From an uncultured Acidobacteriota bacterium (lineage in GTDB: Bacteria > Acidobacteriota > Thermoanaerobaculia > Gp7-AA8 > JAHWKK01): a stretch of DNA of 64,000 bases. The notes beneath the pieces are model-generated. The model saw only the letters and a program-made list of their open reading frames with translations. It had not been told where the DNA came from and made no database searches. The stretch spans positions 214,964 to 278,963 of the forward strand of contig CAWHHZ010000001.1 in the NCBI GenBank assembly GCA_963829355.1, written 5' to 3'. The position numbers and the translations under genes are program-made. This document shows, in pieces, positions 27,810-50,763 of the stretch. The first letter of the stretch is position 1, and every line of letters begins with the position of its first letter.

Positions 27810-27843
27810 TCGGACAGAGTCGAATACGATCTTCCCAGATCGA

Positions 27844-27883
27844 AGCCGCTGTCGGCCCTCACGGCTGACAGCGGCTTTTTTTT
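27844..27883 (+). terminator. rho-independent terminator
   Basis: agccgctgtcggcc-ctcac-ggctgacagcggct followed by a T-run; 35 nt after the stop of the LVIVD gene. Confidence 0.7.
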
Positions 27884-31846: not shown

Positions 31847-33994
31847 TCAGTCTGCGTTGAACACGACCACGGGGCAAGGCGCGTGGTTGAGGATACGCTC
31901 CACCTTCGGACCGAGGAACAGCCGTTGCGAACCTGGTCGAAGGTCGGTGCCGAGAATGATCAGATCAACCGCTTCCTTCCTCGCCAGATCGAGAATCACC
32001 CGTTCCGCATCCCGGCCCACACGCACCTCTTCATCGATGTTCGCAGAGATCGCCTCCCCCACCACCTTGAGATCGGAAACGATCTGACGGGCTGCTCCGA
32101 GCTGGCGCTGGAACAGGCTGTTATCGGGATCGAACGTGATCTGGCTCTGCTTCTGAACGACGTTCAGAAGAATGACCTTTTCTCCCTCACCGCGGGTCAG
32201 AGCAAAACCTACCTCCGCGGCACGTCGCGAGGGAAGGGTGCCGTTGGTCGGGACCAGCACCCGACTCCCGGTCCATTCTCCATGTTCCGCGCCACTGCGG
32301 ATCACCATCGTCGGGCACGGCGAGACCCGAAGAAGATAGTCCACCATAGGATTGAACAACACCCGCGACGAGCCCGCCTCCTCGGAGGCTCCGAGCAGCA
32401 TCAGATCGTAGCCTTTTTCGGCCTCATCGAGAATGAGCTCCGAAGGAGAGGTCCCTTCCACGACTTTCTTCGAGAGCTCGACGCCGGGAAAGAGCTCACT
32501 GACCCGATCGAGGAAATCGACGCCCTTTCCTCGCTCGCCCGGCTTCGTCACCGTGAGGAGACTCAGCGCGATCGGACTCGCTTCCGACAGTTTCTGAAGG
32601 ATCTTCGACTCGATGCGATACGTCATCGTCGAGGTGTCCCGGAGCCGGATGGGGAGCAGTACGCGGTGAATCGATGCGACGAGACTCTCCTCTTCCTTCT
32701 CCTCCTTCTGGAGGCGCTCGAGCTCCTCGTCCGAAGGAGTCACGTGCCTGAGCACCCATCGCAATGCGGTCGGCGCCAGCAGCGCGTTCGTCATCGCCAT
32801 CAGAACGATGATCGAGAACATGTCACGGGAGAAGACGCCGAGGGAGAGTCCGATGGTTGCGATGATGATGTCCATCGCACCGCGTGTGTTCAACCCGGCG
32901 CTGAACGAAAGTGCGTACCAGTGATCTTTCCGTCCGATGAGCCGGGCGCCGATATAGGTTCCGGTGCCCTTGGCGATGGCCGTGACAACGATGACCGTCG
33001 CTGCAAGACCGAGAAGGCGAGGCTCCATGAGATGCCTGAGGTCGACCTTGAGACCCGCGACCGCGAAGAAGATTGGAGCGAAAACGCCGAGGGCGATGCT
33101 CTCCAGCTTCTCCAGCGCGTCCTCCGGGAGTCTCCGCATCTGCGAGAAAACGATCCCTATGATGAACGCTCCGAGCACCGCCTCGAGATGAAGCGCCATG
33201 CTGATCGCACCCCAGGCAAACATCAGGACGACGATGAACGTCAGGTAACGGTCCGCTCCCGTGACTCGATCACCGACGAAGTCGATCAGCCGTTTCACGA
33301 CCCAGCGGCCGACGGTGAGGCTGAGGATGATGAACGCGATGACGCTGCCAGCGTTCTGCGCGACGGAACCCGCGGTGATCTCGTGACCCGACGCGAGACC
33401 TGCAACGATCGAAAGTATGATCCAGCCGATCGTGTCGTCGCTCATGCCGGCGGCGATGAGAGTCTGGCCGACGTCGCGCCTCATCAGATTCATGTCCATG
33501 ATCACCTTGGCGATCACGGCGATCGCCGAGATGGCCATCGCGGTTCCAAGGAAAAGAGCGAATACCATCCGCTCTTCGGGGTTACCGAGAAGAGAGTCAG
33601 GCAGATTACGACCGAGAAAGAAGCCGCCGGTAAACGTGAGAATGATGCCGCAGAGCGATACCCCGATCGCGGTCTTTGCGTGTCGGCGGATCAGCGCAAG
33701 ATCTGTCTCGAGACCCGTGATCAGCATCATGAACATCGCGCCGATGAGAGAAATCACTTCGAGGAGGTAGCCCTGGGTAGGAGTCTGCGGAACGATGTAG
33801 GCGCCCGCGGCCGGAACCATCGAAGAGAGAATGGACGGTCCGAGGAGGATTCCGGCGAAGATCTCTCCCACGACGGCCGGCTGGCCGAGCCGCTTCGAGA
33901 CCTCGCCGAGCGCTCTCGCGGTGAAGAGCAATACCCCGATCTGGACGACGAGTCTCAGTACGTCTTCATGTGCTGCCGCGGTAAATGGTTCCAT
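31847..33994 (-). CDS. CPA2-family (Kef-type) monovalent cation:proton antiporter fused to two C-terminal universal stress protein (UspA) domains
   Basis: Intact 715 aa; about 12 TM with GLETDL motif; C-terminal tandem USP domains (VLVPTNGTL...; PCPVVVF). Confidence 0.85.
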   Translation of the reverse strand: MEPFTAAAHEDVLRLVVQIGVLLFTARALGEVSKRLGQPAVVGEIFAGILLGPSILSSMVPAAGAYIVPQTPTQGYLLEVISLIGAMFMMLITGLETDLALIRRHAKTAIGVSLCGIILTFTGGFFLGRNLPDSLLGNPEERMVFALFLGTAMAISAIAVIAKVIMDMNLMRRDVGQTLIAAGMSDDTIGWIILSIVAGLASGHEITAGSVAQNAGSVIAFIILSLTVGRWVVKRLIDFVGDRVTGADRYLTFIVVLMFAWGAISMALHLEAVLGAFIIGIVFSQMRRLPEDALEKLESIALGVFAPIFFAVAGLKVDLRHLMEPRLLGLAATVIVVTAIAKGTGTYIGARLIGRKDHWYALSFSAGLNTRGAMDIIIATIGLSLGVFSRDMFSIIVLMAMTNALLAPTALRWVLRHVTPSDEELERLQKEEKEEESLVASIHRVLLPIRLRDTSTMTYRIESKILQKLSEASPIALSLLTVTKPGERGKGVDFLDRVSELFPGVELSKKVVEGTSPSELILDEAEKGYDLMLLGASEEAGSSRVLFNPMVDYLLRVSPCPTMVIRSGAEHGEWTGSRVLVPTNGTLPSRRAAEVGFALTRGEGEKVILLNVVQKQSQITFDPDNSLFQRQLGAARQIVSDLKVVGEAISANIDEEVRVGRDAERVILDLARKEAVDLIILGTDLRPGSQRLFLGPKVERILNHAPCPVVVFNAD

Positions 33995-34060
33995 CTTGTT
34001 GAGCCTTCAGGCCTGGACGACTGCGCTGGACGCGCAACAATACAACATCCACGCCCGGTT

Positions 34061-34495
34061 TCAGCCTGAAGATCGATAGCTGCAGGCGAGCTCGATGTGA
34101 CTGTTGATGTCGCGCGCACTCTTCCGAACTGCGCCGACTTTGCGATCACGTTCGATGATGAACGTCACCCGGCCGGCAAGCTTCAGCAGTGGCCACTTCA
34201 CGCCGTACGTCGAAATGATCTCCGCTCCTGGATCGCCGACGAGAGGGAAAGGCAGGTCGAGCTCCTCCCGGAAGCGGTCGCTGACGTCCTGCCCATCAGC
34301 CGAAACCCCGACCACGTCAACCCCCCGCGCTACGAGATCGTCATACTGCTCGCGAAACTCGCGAGCCTCCTTCGTTCAGCCGGGTGTGAACGCCTTCGGA
34401 AAAAAGAAAACCGCCACAGCCCCGCTCTCCAGCAACTCGTAAAGCGACGAATCGCCAATCGAAAAGTCGGGAGCCGCGTCACCAGTGGAGAGCAT
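34061..34495 (-). CDS. BCP/PrxQ-type peroxiredoxin with in-frame TGA at the peroxidatic Cys position (candidate selenocysteine Prx)
   Basis: MLSTGDAAPDFSIGD...GAVAVFFFPKAFTPG-[TGA 34376-34378]-TKEAREFREQYDDLVARGVDVVGVSADGQD... aligns with E. coli Bcp YFYPKAMTPGCT, with TGA exactly at CysP. Sequence is in frame on both sides of the TGA. Confidence 0.65.
34348..34366 (-). promoter_or_regulatory. candidate bacterial SECIS hairpin 9 nt downstream of the in-frame UGA
   Basis: UGA-acgaaggag-GCUCGCGaguuuCGCGAGC: a 7-8 bp perfect stem with a GU-containing apical loop ~20 nt after the UGA. Confidence 0.5.
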
Positions 34496-34518
34496 GTTGA
34501 AAGGATATCAGGCATCGG

Positions 34519-36720
34519 TCAGCAGTCGTCAGATTGTGGACGTTCGTGGACGTGGTGGACGTCTGTGGACGATGTGGACAGAAGCGTGGACTGAGGCGTG
34601 GACAGAGGCGTGGACGGAAAGCTGCTCAGAAACTCTCTTGAAGTTTCTGGTCCACTCTTTCGTCCACGCTTCTGTCCACGCTTCTGTCCACCCAGTCCAC
34701 CCAGTCCACCATGTCCACAGACGTCCACCCCGTCCACAACCTGTCGACTGTCGACTGACGACCGACGACTGCACCCTTGCAGCTCCCGAATGAACGCCCC
34801 GGTGCTGACGGGGCGGCCTAGAAACTCCTCCACGATTGTCTTTGCCTCGGCTTCTCCTCCGCGTGCGAGGATGACCTCTCGGAAGCGGTGGCCGGTGTCG
34901 CGGTTCATGATGTCGTCACCGAATACCGAGAGCAGATCGTTCGCGATTGTTTCCGACCAGAGATAGCCGTAGTAGCCGGCCGCGTAGCCGCCCGTAATGT
35001 GGCCGAACGCGGCCGGAAACATCGTTCCTTCGACATAGCCGAGCGCCGTCTCATCTTCCATCTGCCTCCAGCGGTCGAGCGACGAGGCTGAGCTCGCTCC
35101 GGCGAGCGCCATGTCGTAGCTCGCGTAGAGGTGTTGCCGCGCGTAATGGATCCCCTTGCCGAACCGGCGCGCACCGTCGAGTCTTTTCGCCAGATCCGCG
35201 TCGATGACCGGACAGGTCGGACAGATCTCCGCCATGATCGAGAGGCTCTCGATCCGTCTCCCCCACTCTTCGAACATCTGCGAAGGAGCTTCGACGAAGT
35301 CGCGCTGCACCGCCGTCCCGGAGTGCATGTTGTAGACGGTCGACGAGAGAACGCCGTGGAGGACATGGCCGAACTCGTGGAGAAACGTCTCGAGCTCCTG
35401 GTGGGTCAGGCCTCGGCGATCGAAGTTCGTGACGAGCGCACTGACTGGTTTTCTCCCGGTCCTTCTGCTGACCCCACGCACAGGCCAGGCGGCGGCGTGT
35501 TTGTACTTGCCGTCTCGAGGGTAGAGGTCCATGTAGATCCCGCCGATGAGCTCATCGCTCGTCCCGTCGATGACGTCGAAGTACAGAACCTCGGGACTCC
35601 ACACAGGAACCTCGATCCGCTCGAACCGGACTCCGTAGAGCCGGCTGCTGAGCTCGAGGACCCAGCAGATCGACGGCTCGACGGGAAAATACTTCCGGAG
35701 CTTTTCCTGATCGACGGAAAACTTCTGCTCACGCACCCGCTCCGACCAGTAAGGCACGTCCCAACGATGAATCCGGACCGACTCCAGCGGCTCGTTCGTC
35801 GCGGCAGCTTTTGCCCGTCGCAGCTCCCCGAGATCGTGCTGCTCCCGCTCCCGCACGGCATCGAGAACATCGTCGAGGAACGCGCGAACACGCTCGGGAT
35901 TCTCGACCATTCGCCGGCGTGTCACATAATGCGCGTACGTCGGCAGAGCGTAGAGGGTGGCCATCTCGCTACGCAGCTCCACGATCGTGTCGAGCAGTCG
36001 TAGATTCTCCTCTCCTCCCCGCTGGAGGTAAGCGGTAAAGAGGCGGCGCCTCGCATCTTCGCTCCGCACGTTCATCATGAACGGGTTGTACTCCGGATAG
36101 TCGAACCCGACGAGAATCTCGTCGCCATCCCTATCGAGGGTGTCGATGATGGCCTGCGGAAGTCCCTCGATTTCGCTCTCGGAAAAGCGGACCTTCACCT
36201 CCTGTTCCCGGATGTTCTTTGCGAACTGCTGACTGAGCTCAGTGATCGACTGGCTGATCTCCCGGAAACGGCGACGCTCATCCTCGTCGAGAGCGACACC
36301 GCTGTCTTCGAACGCTTCGAGCAGATCCTTCTTCAGCGTCAGCTCCGGCGGGCTGGACGGCTCGACAGCAGAGACTCTCTCGAAGAGTGCACGATTCTGA
36401 TAGATCTCGGTGTTGAAACTCGAGAGCTCGACCATGTGCTCGTCCGCGGCTTCCCGAACCTGCCGGACAGGATGGACCTCGTTGAGCAGGGACACCGGCC
36501 CGAAGACGTCCTCGACGAGAATCTCGATGTCATCCCACCGGTCGAGAACATCGCTGACTGATGATTTCTCCAGAGGGATCGACTCGATCTCGTTCAATTT
36601 CGATCGCGCCAGATCGATCACGCGACGACATGAGTGCTCGAGCGTGATGGGATCGTGGATCGGGAGGATTGTGCGCTCGGCGGCGCGAGGTTCAGGCGAC
36701 TTCGGACTCAGATCGTGCAT
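34519..36720 (-). CDS. M3-family zinc metallopeptidase (oligopeptidase A / Dcp-like); the last ~80 codons run through the hexamer array and are probably not genuine
   Basis: HEFGHVLHGVL (HExxH). ATG 36720 with GGGGAG RBS. The C-terminal tail GGLGGLGG...STPLSTPQST is a translation of the repeat array. Confidence 0.75.
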   Translation of the reverse strand: MHDLSPKSPEPRAAERTILPIHDPITLEHSCRRVIDLARSKLNEIESIPLEKSSVSDVLDRWDDIEILVEDVFGPVSLLNEVHPVRQVREAADEHMVELSSFNTEIYQNRALFERVSAVEPSSPPELTLKKDLLEAFEDSGVALDEDERRRFREISQSITELSQQFAKNIREQEVKVRFSESEIEGLPQAIIDTLDRDGDEILVGFDYPEYNPFMMNVRSEDARRRLFTAYLQRGGEENLRLLDTIVELRSEMATLYALPTYAHYVTRRRMVENPERVRAFLDDVLDAVREREQHDLGELRRAKAAATNEPLESVRIHRWDVPYWSERVREQKFSVDQEKLRKYFPVEPSICWVLELSSRLYGVRFERIEVPVWSPEVLYFDVIDGTSDELIGGIYMDLYPRDGKYKHAAAWPVRGVSRRTGRKPVSALVTNFDRRGLTHQELETFLHEFGHVLHGVLSSTVYNMHSGTAVQRDFVEAPSQMFEEWGRRIESLSIMAEICPTCPVIDADLAKRLDGARRFGKGIHYARQHLYASYDMALAGASSASSLDRWRQMEDETALGYVEGTMFPAAFGHITGGYAAGYYGYLWSETIANDLLSVFGDDIMNRDTGHRFREVILARGGEAEAKTIVEEFLGRPVSTGAFIRELQGCSRRSSVDSRQVVDGVDVCGHGGLGGLGGQKRGQKRGRKSGPETSREFLSSFPSTPLSTPQSTLLSTSSTDVHHVHERPQSDDC
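34536..34740. repeat. symmetric inverted array of GTGGAC x8 (left) and GTCCAC x9 (right) around a palindromic centre CAGAAACT-ctcttg-AAGTTTCTG
   Basis: GTGGAC starts at 34536, 46, 55, 65, 74, 86, 98, 34610; GTCCAC starts at 34650, 62, 74, 86, 95, 34704, 13, 23, 32. Spacings are 9-10 bp at the outer ends and 12 bp near the centre on both arms. Units such as aTGTCCACAg resemble the high-GC DnaA box TTGTCCACA. Confidence 0.8.
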
Positions 36721-36997
36721 TGGCTCCCCTGTTGCTGCGAAGCAATGATATCTGCAATCGGACGTCCGGCTCACCCGGTCTGGAATCGGCGGAAAGCCGG
36801 GCGCCCCCGACAGCTGTCACAGTCGGGACGAGAGTCATTTCACTCCACTGACGAAGCGAGGCGGCGTTCATTCCCCCGCTCAGGACGACAGTCGCCCGGC
36901 AACGGATCCCTCCGCTACAATTCAACCACAGCAGCGGGGATAATCTCCTTGCCGCACCGAAACACCACAATGCTTGCACGATCTGGAAGGACGACGA

Positions 36998-45263: not shown

Positions 45264-45435
45264 GTCATCCTGAGCCGCCGCAGCGCAGCGGAGGACGGTC
45301 GAAGGATCGCGTACTTTACCGACTGTCAGGACGGAAAGTACGCGACAGTCAGGACGTACCCGATCCTTCGCAGCGCTCAGAGGCTGTGAAAGAATCCAGC
45401 GTACCCTGGATTTTTTCACAGCCTCTCAGGATGAC
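45264..45435. repeat. GTCATCCTGAG-TIR element with an extra internal hairpin insert
   Basis: Both TIRs are intact. The right TIR cTCAggatgac supplies the stop codon of the minus-strand thioesterase. Confidence 0.6.
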
Positions 45436-48658: not shown

Positions 48659-48751
48659 GAGAGCTCCTTTCGCTTCCCACCGAAGCGCGTTGTGGGACCG
48701 GGAAGCTCGCGTCTGCGCGGAACCGCTCCCATGACCCGAAGGAATGTGAAC

Positions 48752-48922
48752 CGTGTGAGGCAGCCGGTCTCCTGACTCCCGAATCATCCTCCTCGAAGCA
48801 CCCTTCCCGGATAACTTCTCCAGTGGGGATCGCCGCTCGCGCGGTTGATCAGCTTCGATTCGTCATCGGTCACAGTGGCGGGGGCCGTGTCGGACTTGCA
48901 CCGACTTCCCGTGCACCACCTC
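48752..48922 (-). promoter_or_regulatory. cobalamin (AdoCbl) riboswitch
   Basis: Minus-strand RNA GGUGCACGGGAAGUCGGUGCAAGUCCGACACGGCCCCCGCCACUGUGA...CCCACUGG...GGGAAGGG...GAGUCAGGAGACCGGCUGCC carries the conserved core and B12 box; ~95 nt upstream of the TBDR ATG. Confidence 0.8.
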
Positions 48923-48994
48923 ACGAAGGTGTAAAAGAACAGATCGGCGATTGTAGCAGAGAGGGAAGGCTGAGGTAACGCCTCCGGCGTTTCT

Positions 48995-50247: not shown

Positions 50248-50340
50248 GGAGGAGTGGCAGAGCGGTTGAATGCAGCGGTCTTGAAAACCGCCGTGCCGGT
50301 GACCCCGGCACCGTGGGTTCGAATCCCACCTCCTCCGCCA
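50248..50340 (+). tRNA. tRNA-Ser (anticodon TGA), CCA encoded
   Basis: Acceptor GGAGGAG/CTCCTCC, anticodon loop CTTGAAA, long variable arm, T-loop GGTTCGAAT. Confidence 0.85.
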
Positions 50341-50356
50341 GTTGAGAATGCCTCAT

Positions 50357-50490
50357 GTCATCCTGAGCCGCCGGATCCCGCGAAGCGGAAGGAGGACGGT
50401 CGAAGGATCGCGTGGAGTCATACTCACCCCGAGTTTTCTTCGGAATCCAAGTCGAGTCAGCCCGTACGCGATCCTTCGCTTCGCTGCTAA
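50357..50490. repeat. GTCATCCTGAG-TIR element (degenerate right end) 16 nt after the tRNA
   Basis: gtcatcctgagccgccggatcccgcgaagcgg...ggacggtcgaaggatcgcg is shared with the copies at 41122 and 45264. Confidence 0.5.
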
Positions 50491-50524: not shown

Positions 50525-50596
50525 GTCATCCTGACAAGGTTCATTTCTGCTTCACTGGTGACAGCGAAGCGGCGACATTCCCCCGCTCAGGATGAC
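50525..50596. repeat. short GTCATCCTGAG-TIR element
   Basis: gtcatcctgacaagg...gacattcccccgctcaggatgac. Confidence 0.5.
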
Positions 50597-50670
50597 ATCC
50601 TGGGCAATTTCGAGGGTCTCGGCTGGGAATGTTGGTACACTACCTTTGTTTGGAGTCTGGGCACGCTCGC

Positions 50671-50763
50671 GGAGAGATGGGAGAGCGGCTTAATCCAGCG
50701 GTTTGCTAAACCGCCGTACTGATAACCTCAGTACCGAGGGTTCGAATCCCTCTCTCTCCGCCA
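50671..50763 (+). tRNA. tRNA-Ser (anticodon GCT), CCA encoded
   Basis: Acceptor GGAGAGA/TCTCTCC, anticodon loop TTGCTAA, long variable arm, T-loop GGTTCGAAT. Confidence 0.85.

Follow-up and report, generated by a model that had tools for sequence, protein, structure and literature searches.

A 64-kb stretch of the genome of an uncultured Acidobacteriota bacterium (contig CAWHHZ010000001.1; by "the window" we mean this whole stretch) contains an inverted array of GTGGAC and GTCCAC hexamers near 34.6 kb, between a gene for an M3 oligopeptidase and a gene for a peroxiredoxin (prx). Our preferred reading, to which we give a probability of roughly 55%, is that the array is a palindromic minisatellite with a possible structural role as a 3'-end or insulating hairpin between the two genes. 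On the narrower question of whether it has a 3'-end or insulator role rather than none, we are tentative and lean slightly towards none. We are confident, on the other hand, that the array belongs to a class of hairpin repeats and that it is neither a replication origin nor an operator. It is the largest that we saw of this class, which is common in the Acidobacteriota (Thermoanaerobaculia, Vicinamibacteria, and relatives).

An earlier note, made from the DNA sequence alone, had described 17 hexamers, eight facing nine, spaced 9-10 bp apart at the distal ends and 12 bp apart near a palindromic center, in arms that are imperfect reverse complements and that lie 40 bp ahead of the prx start. This description holds up. 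The eight GTGGAC copies occupy 34536-34615 and the nine GTCCAC copies (GTGGAC on the minus strand) occupy 34650-34737, with spacings of 10, 9, 10, 9, 12, 12, and 12 nt in the left arm and 12, 12, 12, 9, 9, 9, 10, and 9 nt in the right arm, whose distal zone has one unit more than that of the left. These 17 copies fall within 202 bp, as compared to 26 copies across the remaining 63.8 kb; 0.08 copies would be expected per 202 bp (Poisson P ~1e-33). The halves of the central stem lie at 34627-34634 and 34642-34649, and the first unit (34536) is 40 nt from the prx ATG (34495, minus strand). The whole element is a 264-bp imperfect palindrome (34508-34771) that is bounded by degenerate 7-mers (TCGTCAG on the left, CTGTCGA or CTGACGA on the right). 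Its three zones of different period are nested around the small central stem-loop: 7 nt at the outside, then 9-10 nt, then 12 nt.

The left arm and the reverse complement of the right arm are 85% identical over about 120 nt, with indels that are the size of a unit. The order of the unit variants is mirrored as well: none of 500 shuffles of the unit order matched the observed alignment score, and the 4-nt spacer gtct, which is unique in the left arm, is mirrored by agac in the right arm. So the arms are true mirror copies rather than two arrays that merely have a hexamer in common. The predicted folds of the element are very stable, both as RNA (-183 kcal/mol, z = -11.5) and as DNA (-94 kcal/mol, z = -11.3). 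A search for other GTGGAC arrays, which the earlier note had proposed and which we ran within the 64-kb window, found none, and nothing else in the window is a comparable element. An Rfam scan at the gathering thresholds gave no match at the array.

We recovered the same junction (peptidase, prx, and Na/H exchanger) from four relatives. In the closest of them, L001, whose peptidase is 78% identical, the array is built from GTGGAC/GTCCAC units together with CAGTCAT/CTGACGA units and has an assembly gap inside it. L003 (peptidase 67% identical) has the same architecture with other units, GGTTCA and TGAACCCA (TGAACC). The remaining two have no array: in L164 (68%) the stop codon and the ATG are just 20 nt apart, and in L165 (77%) an unrelated 540-bp spacer separates the genes. 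At a conserved site, then, both copy number and unit sequence vary across related genomes (the window, L001, and L003, and also at a second junction that we discuss below).

The assemblies of the closest relative break within the array: there is a run of Ns in L001 (7142-7240), and the contig of L002 ends at 2373. These repeats are likely to be a recurrent cause of fragmentation of metagenome-assembled genomes in this lineage. The array itself is not an artifact of assembly, as equivalent arrays are present at orthologous sites in independent assemblies from ENA, JGI, Logan, and NCBI, including a 5.08-Mb contig.

For a broader survey, we searched with a peptidase profile and obtained 80 metagenome loci, whose best segments were at most 66% identical. 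We used these to study the class of repeats and not the prx junction: a prx-like match was found in just one of the 80 (L074), and it was weak, on the opposite strand, and 1.8 kb away. Our strict detector called an array if at least three hexamers spaced 6-14 nt apart were accompanied by at least three reverse-complement copies within 150 bp. It found 27 arrays in 1.84 Mb, as compared to none in shuffled sequence. The Acidobacteriota loci (401 kb) had 14 arrays (about 3.5 per 100 kb), the Proteobacteria loci (788 kb) had none, and the loci from Bacteroidota and other groups (125 kb) had one. The unit differs from site to site, with a period of 7-12 nt, and both arms change together. Examples are GTTCTTag x4 with AAGAACct x4, AATGTTg with AACATTc, GATGAAg with TTCATCc, GTTGTCn with GACAACn, and CATGGGtg with CCCATGca, and there is also a nested form, GAGGTTC-GCAGAAc...TTCTGCa-GAACCTC. 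Given these varied periods, the same-face helical phasing that the earlier note saw in the 9-12-bp spacing is not a general property of the class.

The arrays of this class have a characteristic position. At about 15 Acidobacteriota loci, the array lies directly 3' of the stop codon of the M3 peptidase, irrespective of which gene comes next, so it is the peptidase gene's 3' end, and not prx, that the arrays are associated with. More broadly, the start of an array coincides with the upstream stop codon or is close to it, and its end is just ahead of the promoter, where one can be recognized. Among independent sites, about 14 are between co-directional genes, 5 are between convergent genes, and 2 are between divergent genes; divergent spacers look under-represented. 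Also, in 33 of 36 arrays (from the window and loci L003-L154), the 5' arm has more G than C and the 3' arm is C-rich, on both strands, and there is no bias of T versus A.

Two other explanations for the units can be set aside. Some of them resemble -35 elements (TTGACA, or the "AAC" of extracytoplasmic function [ECF] promoters) or would supply stop codons in all frames, but while GTTGAC, CTGACGA, and GATGAA fit these ideas, GTGGAC/GTCCAC and several others do not. Nor is this a CRISPR array, as the "spacers" are 3-6 nt and there are no cas genes nearby.

Neighboring arrays within one locus carry different units. In two loci, we also saw a pair of arrays with the same unit: GATGAA in L093 (4580-4656 and 7367-7424) and GTTGTC in L098 (11930-11990 and 15864-15982), in each case with different loops and flanks. 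Shared units at a distance of a few kb hint at either a limited vocabulary of units or exchange between arrays. Such reappearances also bear on the idea that the array is a mobile element, similar to miniature inverted-repeat transposable elements or to repetitive extragenic palindromic (REP) sequences, that inserted at the end of the peptidase gene. The terminal inverted symmetry, the presence or absence among relatives, and the recurrence of the units GTTGTCn, GATGAAn, and AATTGAn at different sites and in different genomes would all be expected of a mobile element. But the 64-kb window has a single copy, arrays with a common unit are unrelated in their loops and flanks, comparison to the empty site in L164 shows no evident target-site duplication, and the open reading frame (ORF) that the array encodes had no matches among 5.8 billion proteins. 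We consider a mobile element to be very improbable.

A second conserved junction, between an Fpg-like gene and a gene for an ECF sigma factor (7335-7447 in L098, with orthologous junctions in 15 other loci), has a hairpin in 11-12 of the 16 loci. Its heptamers differ in nearly every genome (GATCGCn, GTTGTCg, GGTGTCa, GTTGCCg, GTGCTGa, GGCGTTg, GATGAAc, and others), and L086 and L014 have one in common. Within one array, the complementarity of the arms averages 0.71, while the identity between arms of different genomes averages 0.40. So the hairpin and its tandem build persist while the sequence turns over, and the two arms change together. Every hairpin has the stop codon on one side and, on the other, a conserved ECF-type promoter (TCTAACGTTTCC-N16-CGTCTAT). 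At the four loci that lack it, the stop codon abuts the -35 element, and in some genomes the Fpg stop overlaps the -35. At this site, the element is part of the upstream unit's 3' region and is outside of the downstream gene's leader.

The earlier note had been struck by the similarity of some units to a high-GC DnaA box and had suggested that the array might be a replication origin, with two opposed arrays of DnaA boxes serving as DnaA oligomerization regions. The layout is symmetric, as in the opposed clusters of short motifs at oriC, and 3 of the 17 units are within one mismatch of TTRTCCACA. But none of the 17 is a perfect DnaA box (TTATNCACA or TTGTCCACA), and such near matches occur 12 times in the whole window, as compared to 10.6 expected by chance. 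The other defining features of an oriC that we tested were absent as well. We found no dnaA in the window by tblastn with E. coli DnaA as the query (the best hit had E = 2.7), which agrees with the earlier note. Cumulative GC skew, which that note had proposed as a check for an origin, is flat across the 64 kb, with no switch at 34.6 kb. The array has a GC content of 58% and is flanked by coding sequence, with no AT-rich unwinding element nearby. Finally, the array is not conserved at the orthologous junction in relatives, and many sites in each genome have this architecture with other units. We see practically no chance that this is an origin.

Another suggestion was that the array is an operator for a regulator of prx. 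More broadly, an oligomerizing protein might read GTGGAC at 9-12-bp spacing and either regulate prx or organize the DNA, as at a plasmid centromere. An identical hexamer, regularly spaced, 40 nt 5' of prx, is what we would expect to see. However, prx and a TATCCT hexamer just ahead of it are kept across the relatives, while the array is not: the unit ahead of the prx ortholog is another one in L003, and the array is missing from L164 and L165. Because of this, and because arrays follow the peptidase whatever gene is downstream, the operator reading fails. The sister arrays are unrelated units beside unrelated genes, and neither of the immediate neighbors, the M3 peptidase and a Na/H exchanger-Usp protein, is a DNA-binding protein. 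We think an operator or iteron array has only a few chances in a hundred. The third alternative in the earlier note, a cruciform-prone minisatellite, was essentially right.

REP sequences and bacterial interspersed mosaic elements (BIMEs) have been proposed to protect the 3' ends of mRNAs, to terminate transcription, or to affect supercoiling, and our functional model for the array is borrowed from them. The array fills the gap that separates the M3 peptidase gene, at its 3' end, from the apparent promoter of a prx that is predicted to contain selenocysteine. Under this model, units would be gained and lost by replication slippage inside an arm, and changes would pass from one arm to the other by intrastrand template switching or by conversion, so that the arms would remain complementary while the unit sequence drifts. 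No sequence-specific protein would be involved. Transcription of the peptidase gene would give an RNA stem of about 100 bp, which would act by halting or pausing RNA polymerase or by blocking 3'-exonucleases, and which would separate the peptidase transcript from prx, with its own apparent -10 element at the ATG. In this genome, a deletion at the border of the array took away the stop codon of the peptidase, which left an accidental tail of 84 amino acids.

Several observations fit a REP-like role at 3' ends. The first is the distribution of orientation classes that we described above. Second, canonical terminators (a hairpin plus a run of T) are not enriched in the window, with 33 as compared to about 37 expected from shuffled sequence. 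Third, in the sole example of the class that we found outside of the Acidobacteriota among the loci examined, from Hymenobacter daecheongensis (L154, 11927-12075), the two genes are convergent, and the canonical bidirectional terminator between them has AGTTGTc repeats on one side and ACAACTg repeats on the other. We also noticed that the only convincing intrinsic terminator in 60 kb of the window is at 27842-27878 on the plus strand, with a 16-bp stem and a T-run.

Other observations weigh against this model. The hairpin is not followed by a U-tract: a terminator scan of 33900-35100 was empty, and the sense sequence past the 3' arm is AATCTGACGACTG. For 19 arrays, the RNA folds of the two strands, sense and antisense, do not differ in stability (9 versus 10, with a mean difference of +0.3 kcal/mol), and the strands show no asymmetry in G-U pairs either, so G-U pairing gives no sign of selection on the RNA. 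The element is dispensable, as L164, L165, and four of the Fpg-sigma junctions do without it. A 3'-end role would be meaningless at two independent sites, which are flanked by divergent start codons. And arrays occupy the entire space from stop to promoter; here, one destroyed a stop codon. Filling the available space and destroying a stop codon is how a neutral or selfish expanding repeat would behave.

This leads to the alternative that the array is purely a neutral or selfish palindromic minisatellite, which expands by slippage and by copying between arms until it runs into constrained sequence, and which has no function but is tolerated in the intergenic DNA of this lineage. Orthologous sites are polymorphic for presence or absence, the arms can be of unequal length (8 versus 9 units here, and 3 versus 10 in L098), one arm is decaying in L086, and there is no strand asymmetry at the RNA level. 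Arrays abut stop codons and -35 elements, in our case with the removal of the stop codon, and all three intergenic orientation classes are occupied. It is harder to see why a neutral repeat would be kept as a hairpin at one junction in 11-12 of the 16 genomes, which have diverged and whose units have turned over completely, why 33 of 36 arrays would have the same G-to-C polarity, or why divergent spacers would apparently be depleted. Still, inheritance and mutational bias could explain the persistence of the hairpin, the polarity, and the depletion. We consider a purely neutral origin to be a real possibility, although not the one that we would choose.

The genes around the array are all on the minus strand, with the M3 peptidase upstream, then prx, and then the Na/H exchanger-Usp gene downstream (Table 1). 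The earlier note observed that the peptidase ORF runs through the array, and it does, for 84 codons. The match to PF01432 stops at residue 666 of 751, and the homologous part reaches about 34774 (residue 667). Among the 120 matches listed, and leaving aside an identical deposited sequence, the homologs have 617-685 amino acids, and mostly about 650. By the names of its homologs, the organism falls within the class Thermoanaerobaculia of the Acidobacteriota. So the final 84 codons (34522-34773, minus strand) are read-through of the array (GGLGGLGG...STPLSTPQST), up to a TGA inside a 7-mer unit. In L001, the peptidase has a TAG stop codon 6 nt ahead of the array, and the equivalent stop has been lost in the window. 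The C-terminal extension is spurious, and the deposited peptidase (P0001, 733 amino acids) contains it.

The peroxiredoxin is a candidate selenoprotein. Its in-frame TGA (34376-34378) is exactly at the position of the peroxidatic cysteine (FTPG-TGA-TKE), and a perfect 8-bp hairpin, GCTCGCGAGTTTCGCGAGC (34348-34366; GCTCGCGA-GUU-UCGCGAGC), begins 9 nt past the TGA. All four relatives keep the TGA, and L001, L003, and L164 keep the hairpin as well. The hairpin is a candidate for an element that is similar to a selenocysteine insertion sequence. Gene callers shorten prx to 88-91 amino acids.

In an alignment of five orthologous junctions, a -10-like hexamer, TATCCT, is found 6-7 nt 5' of the prx ATG in L001, L003, and L164 as well as in the window, and it is TATGCT in L165. 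We saw no Shine-Dalgarno sequence ahead of prx. The fixed spacing between this hexamer and the ATG, together with the missing Shine-Dalgarno sequence, suggests that prx has its own promoter, 3' of the array, and a leaderless mRNA. A scan for consensus sigma-70 promoters around the array gave no match.

These features argue against another potential role for the array, as a translation element in the 5' leader, in which the C-rich arm by the start codon would act as an unstructured repeat leader for prx. Similar proposals have been made in the literature, as for the TAACTGA repeats of Beggiatoaceae (PMC4679880; bioRxiv 10.1101/2022.06.06.494920), and several sister arrays have a proximal arm whose end is 0-8 nt from an ATG that has no Shine-Dalgarno sequence. 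But a leaderless prx mRNA would exclude the array, the Fpg-sigma promoter is 3' of its array and so leaves it outside of that leader, and the arrays between convergent genes have no downstream start codon at all. We think that a leader role is most improbable.

Table 1. Coordinates of the parts of the array and of the adjacent features in the window.
Feature	Position	Strand	Basis
Outer left arm, degenerate 7-mers (GGTCAGC AGTCGTC AG...), complementary to 34738-34771	34508..34535	.	Inverted repeats; paired in RNA and DNA folds
Left arm, distal zone: five GTGGAC at 9-10-nt spacing (34536, 34546, 34555, 34565, 34574)	34536..34579	+	Repeat search
Left arm, inner zone: four 12-nt units GTGGACAGAAGC (34574, 34586, 34598, 34610)	34574..34619	+	Direct repeats; period 12, 3.8 copies
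Central stem-loop CAGAAACT / ctcttga / AGTTTCTG, apex of the palindrome	34627..34649	.	Sequence and predicted folds
Right arm, inner zone: four GTCCAC at 12-nt spacing (GTCCACGCTTCT; 34650, 34662, 34674, 34686)	34650..34691	-	Direct repeats
Right arm, distal zone: six GTCCAC at 9-10-nt spacing (34686, 34695, 34704, 34713, 34723, 34732)	34686..34737	-	Direct and inverted repeats; arm alignment
Outer right arm, 7-mers CTGTCGA CTGTCGA CTGACGA CCGACGA CTG	34741..34771	.	Period 7, 4.4 copies; direct and inverted repeats
M3 (thimet-like) oligopeptidase ORF	34519..36774	-	Pfam PF01432
Peroxiredoxin (AhpC/TSA, BCP/PrxQ-like), candidate selenoprotein	34061..34495	-	Domain match, in-frame TGA, hairpin
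-10-like hexamer TATCCT	34502..34507	-	Alignment of five orthologous junctions

Elsewhere in the window, the Rfam matches are a cobalamin riboswitch (48745-48935, minus strand; RF00174, 92.9 bits) and two tRNAs. Between two tRNA-Ser genes, tRNA-Ser(TGA) at 50248-50340 and tRNA-Ser(GCT) at 50671-50763, there are inverted copies (50355-50381 and 50572-50598) of a dispersed repeat of the type GTCATCCTGAGC...GAAGGATC. Related sequence is found at 45361-45432, around a 54-nt palindrome (45376-45429), and also in the L165 spacer (2600-2680).

Repeats with a similar organization have been known for decades from cyanobacteria, in the hairpin-forming heptamers of the short tandemly repeated repetitive (STRR) families. 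Like the arrays that we studied, STRRs are tandem units of about 7 nt in spacers, and they can form a hairpin between co-directional genes, such as hupS-hupL of Nostoc/Anabaena; stabilization of the transcript or translational coupling were proposed, but neither was proven (PMC2670836). There is even some overlap in the units, as Nostoc has ttgtcagttgtcag (PMC2408588) and four of our loci (L016, L049, L090, and L098) have GTTGTCn. On the other hand, STRRs form a few families, each of which occurs tens of times per genome, whereas the unit of our array is unique within the 64-kb window, and in the Acidobacteriota the unit turns over between orthologous sites. Genome-wide recurrence of one unit, which is true of STRR1-3 and also of the GGGAATC repeats of Xanthomonas, was not seen for GTGGAC within the window.

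Xanthomonas has about 70 pairs of inverted GGGAATC arrays, for which no function was identified (Rehm et al. 2015, PMC4692102). These too are intergenic arrays of short tandem units in opposed pairs that could form a stem-loop or a cruciform. The G-rich array is downstream of ORFs on the coding strand, which is the polarity of 33 of the 36 arrays here; sites are conserved across species while length and sequence vary; and the pairs are scarce between divergent genes (PMC4692102). They differ in having one unit throughout the genome, the potential to form G-quadruplexes, and a preferred copy number of four (PMC4692102). The Acidobacteriota arrays, which are from another phylum, have site-specific units (GTGGAC, TGAACC, GTTGTC, GATGAA, and others) without G-tracts, periods of 7-12 nt that can be nested in one hairpin, and up to 17 units.

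REP sequences and BIMEs of Enterobacteria and Pseudomonas are similar in being intergenic hairpins at the 3' ends of genes (PMC3733652). However, REPs have units of 20-40 bp, a sequence that is conserved throughout the genome, and a cognate REP-associated tyrosine transposase (RAYT), and their arms are not tandem arrays, while no sequence is common to all of the Acidobacteriota arrays. The TAACTGA repeats of Beggiatoaceae and the recF/recO heptamers of Nostoc are further examples of repeats whose function is unsettled (PMC4679880; bioRxiv 10.1101/2022.06.06.494920). Our search of the literature found no account of such arrays in Acidobacteria.

What does the array explain? It accounts for the spurious extension of 84 amino acids on a deposited M3 peptidase and for the breaks in the assemblies of relatives (the run of Ns in L001 and the contig end in L002), and a false candidate for a replication origin is removed. 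As compared to the STRR and Xanthomonas repeats, what is new is that the units are site specific, so that orthologous sites give direct evidence of a hairpin and a tandem build that outlast the sequence. In addition, the Acidobacteriota examples place the element between a stop codon and the next promoter. Together, the site-specific units and this placement make it possible to test whether the structure is selected or is a by-product of mutation.

A bolder idea, which we consider unlikely although worth stating, is that Acidobacteriota carry structurally selected, self-renewing hairpins of tandem units that mark off a stop codon from the promoter that follows it, with unit sequences that turn over freely, arms that change in concert, and a polarity (G-rich 5' arm, C-rich 3' arm) that is strictly kept on both strands. 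If this is true, then a density of 3.5 per 100 kb would extrapolate to perhaps a hundred or so of these hairpins in each genome. They would be either a distinct means of insulation or termination that does not involve a U-tract or else the substrate of a dedicated activity that handles hairpins, and they would account for what STRR-type repeats do.

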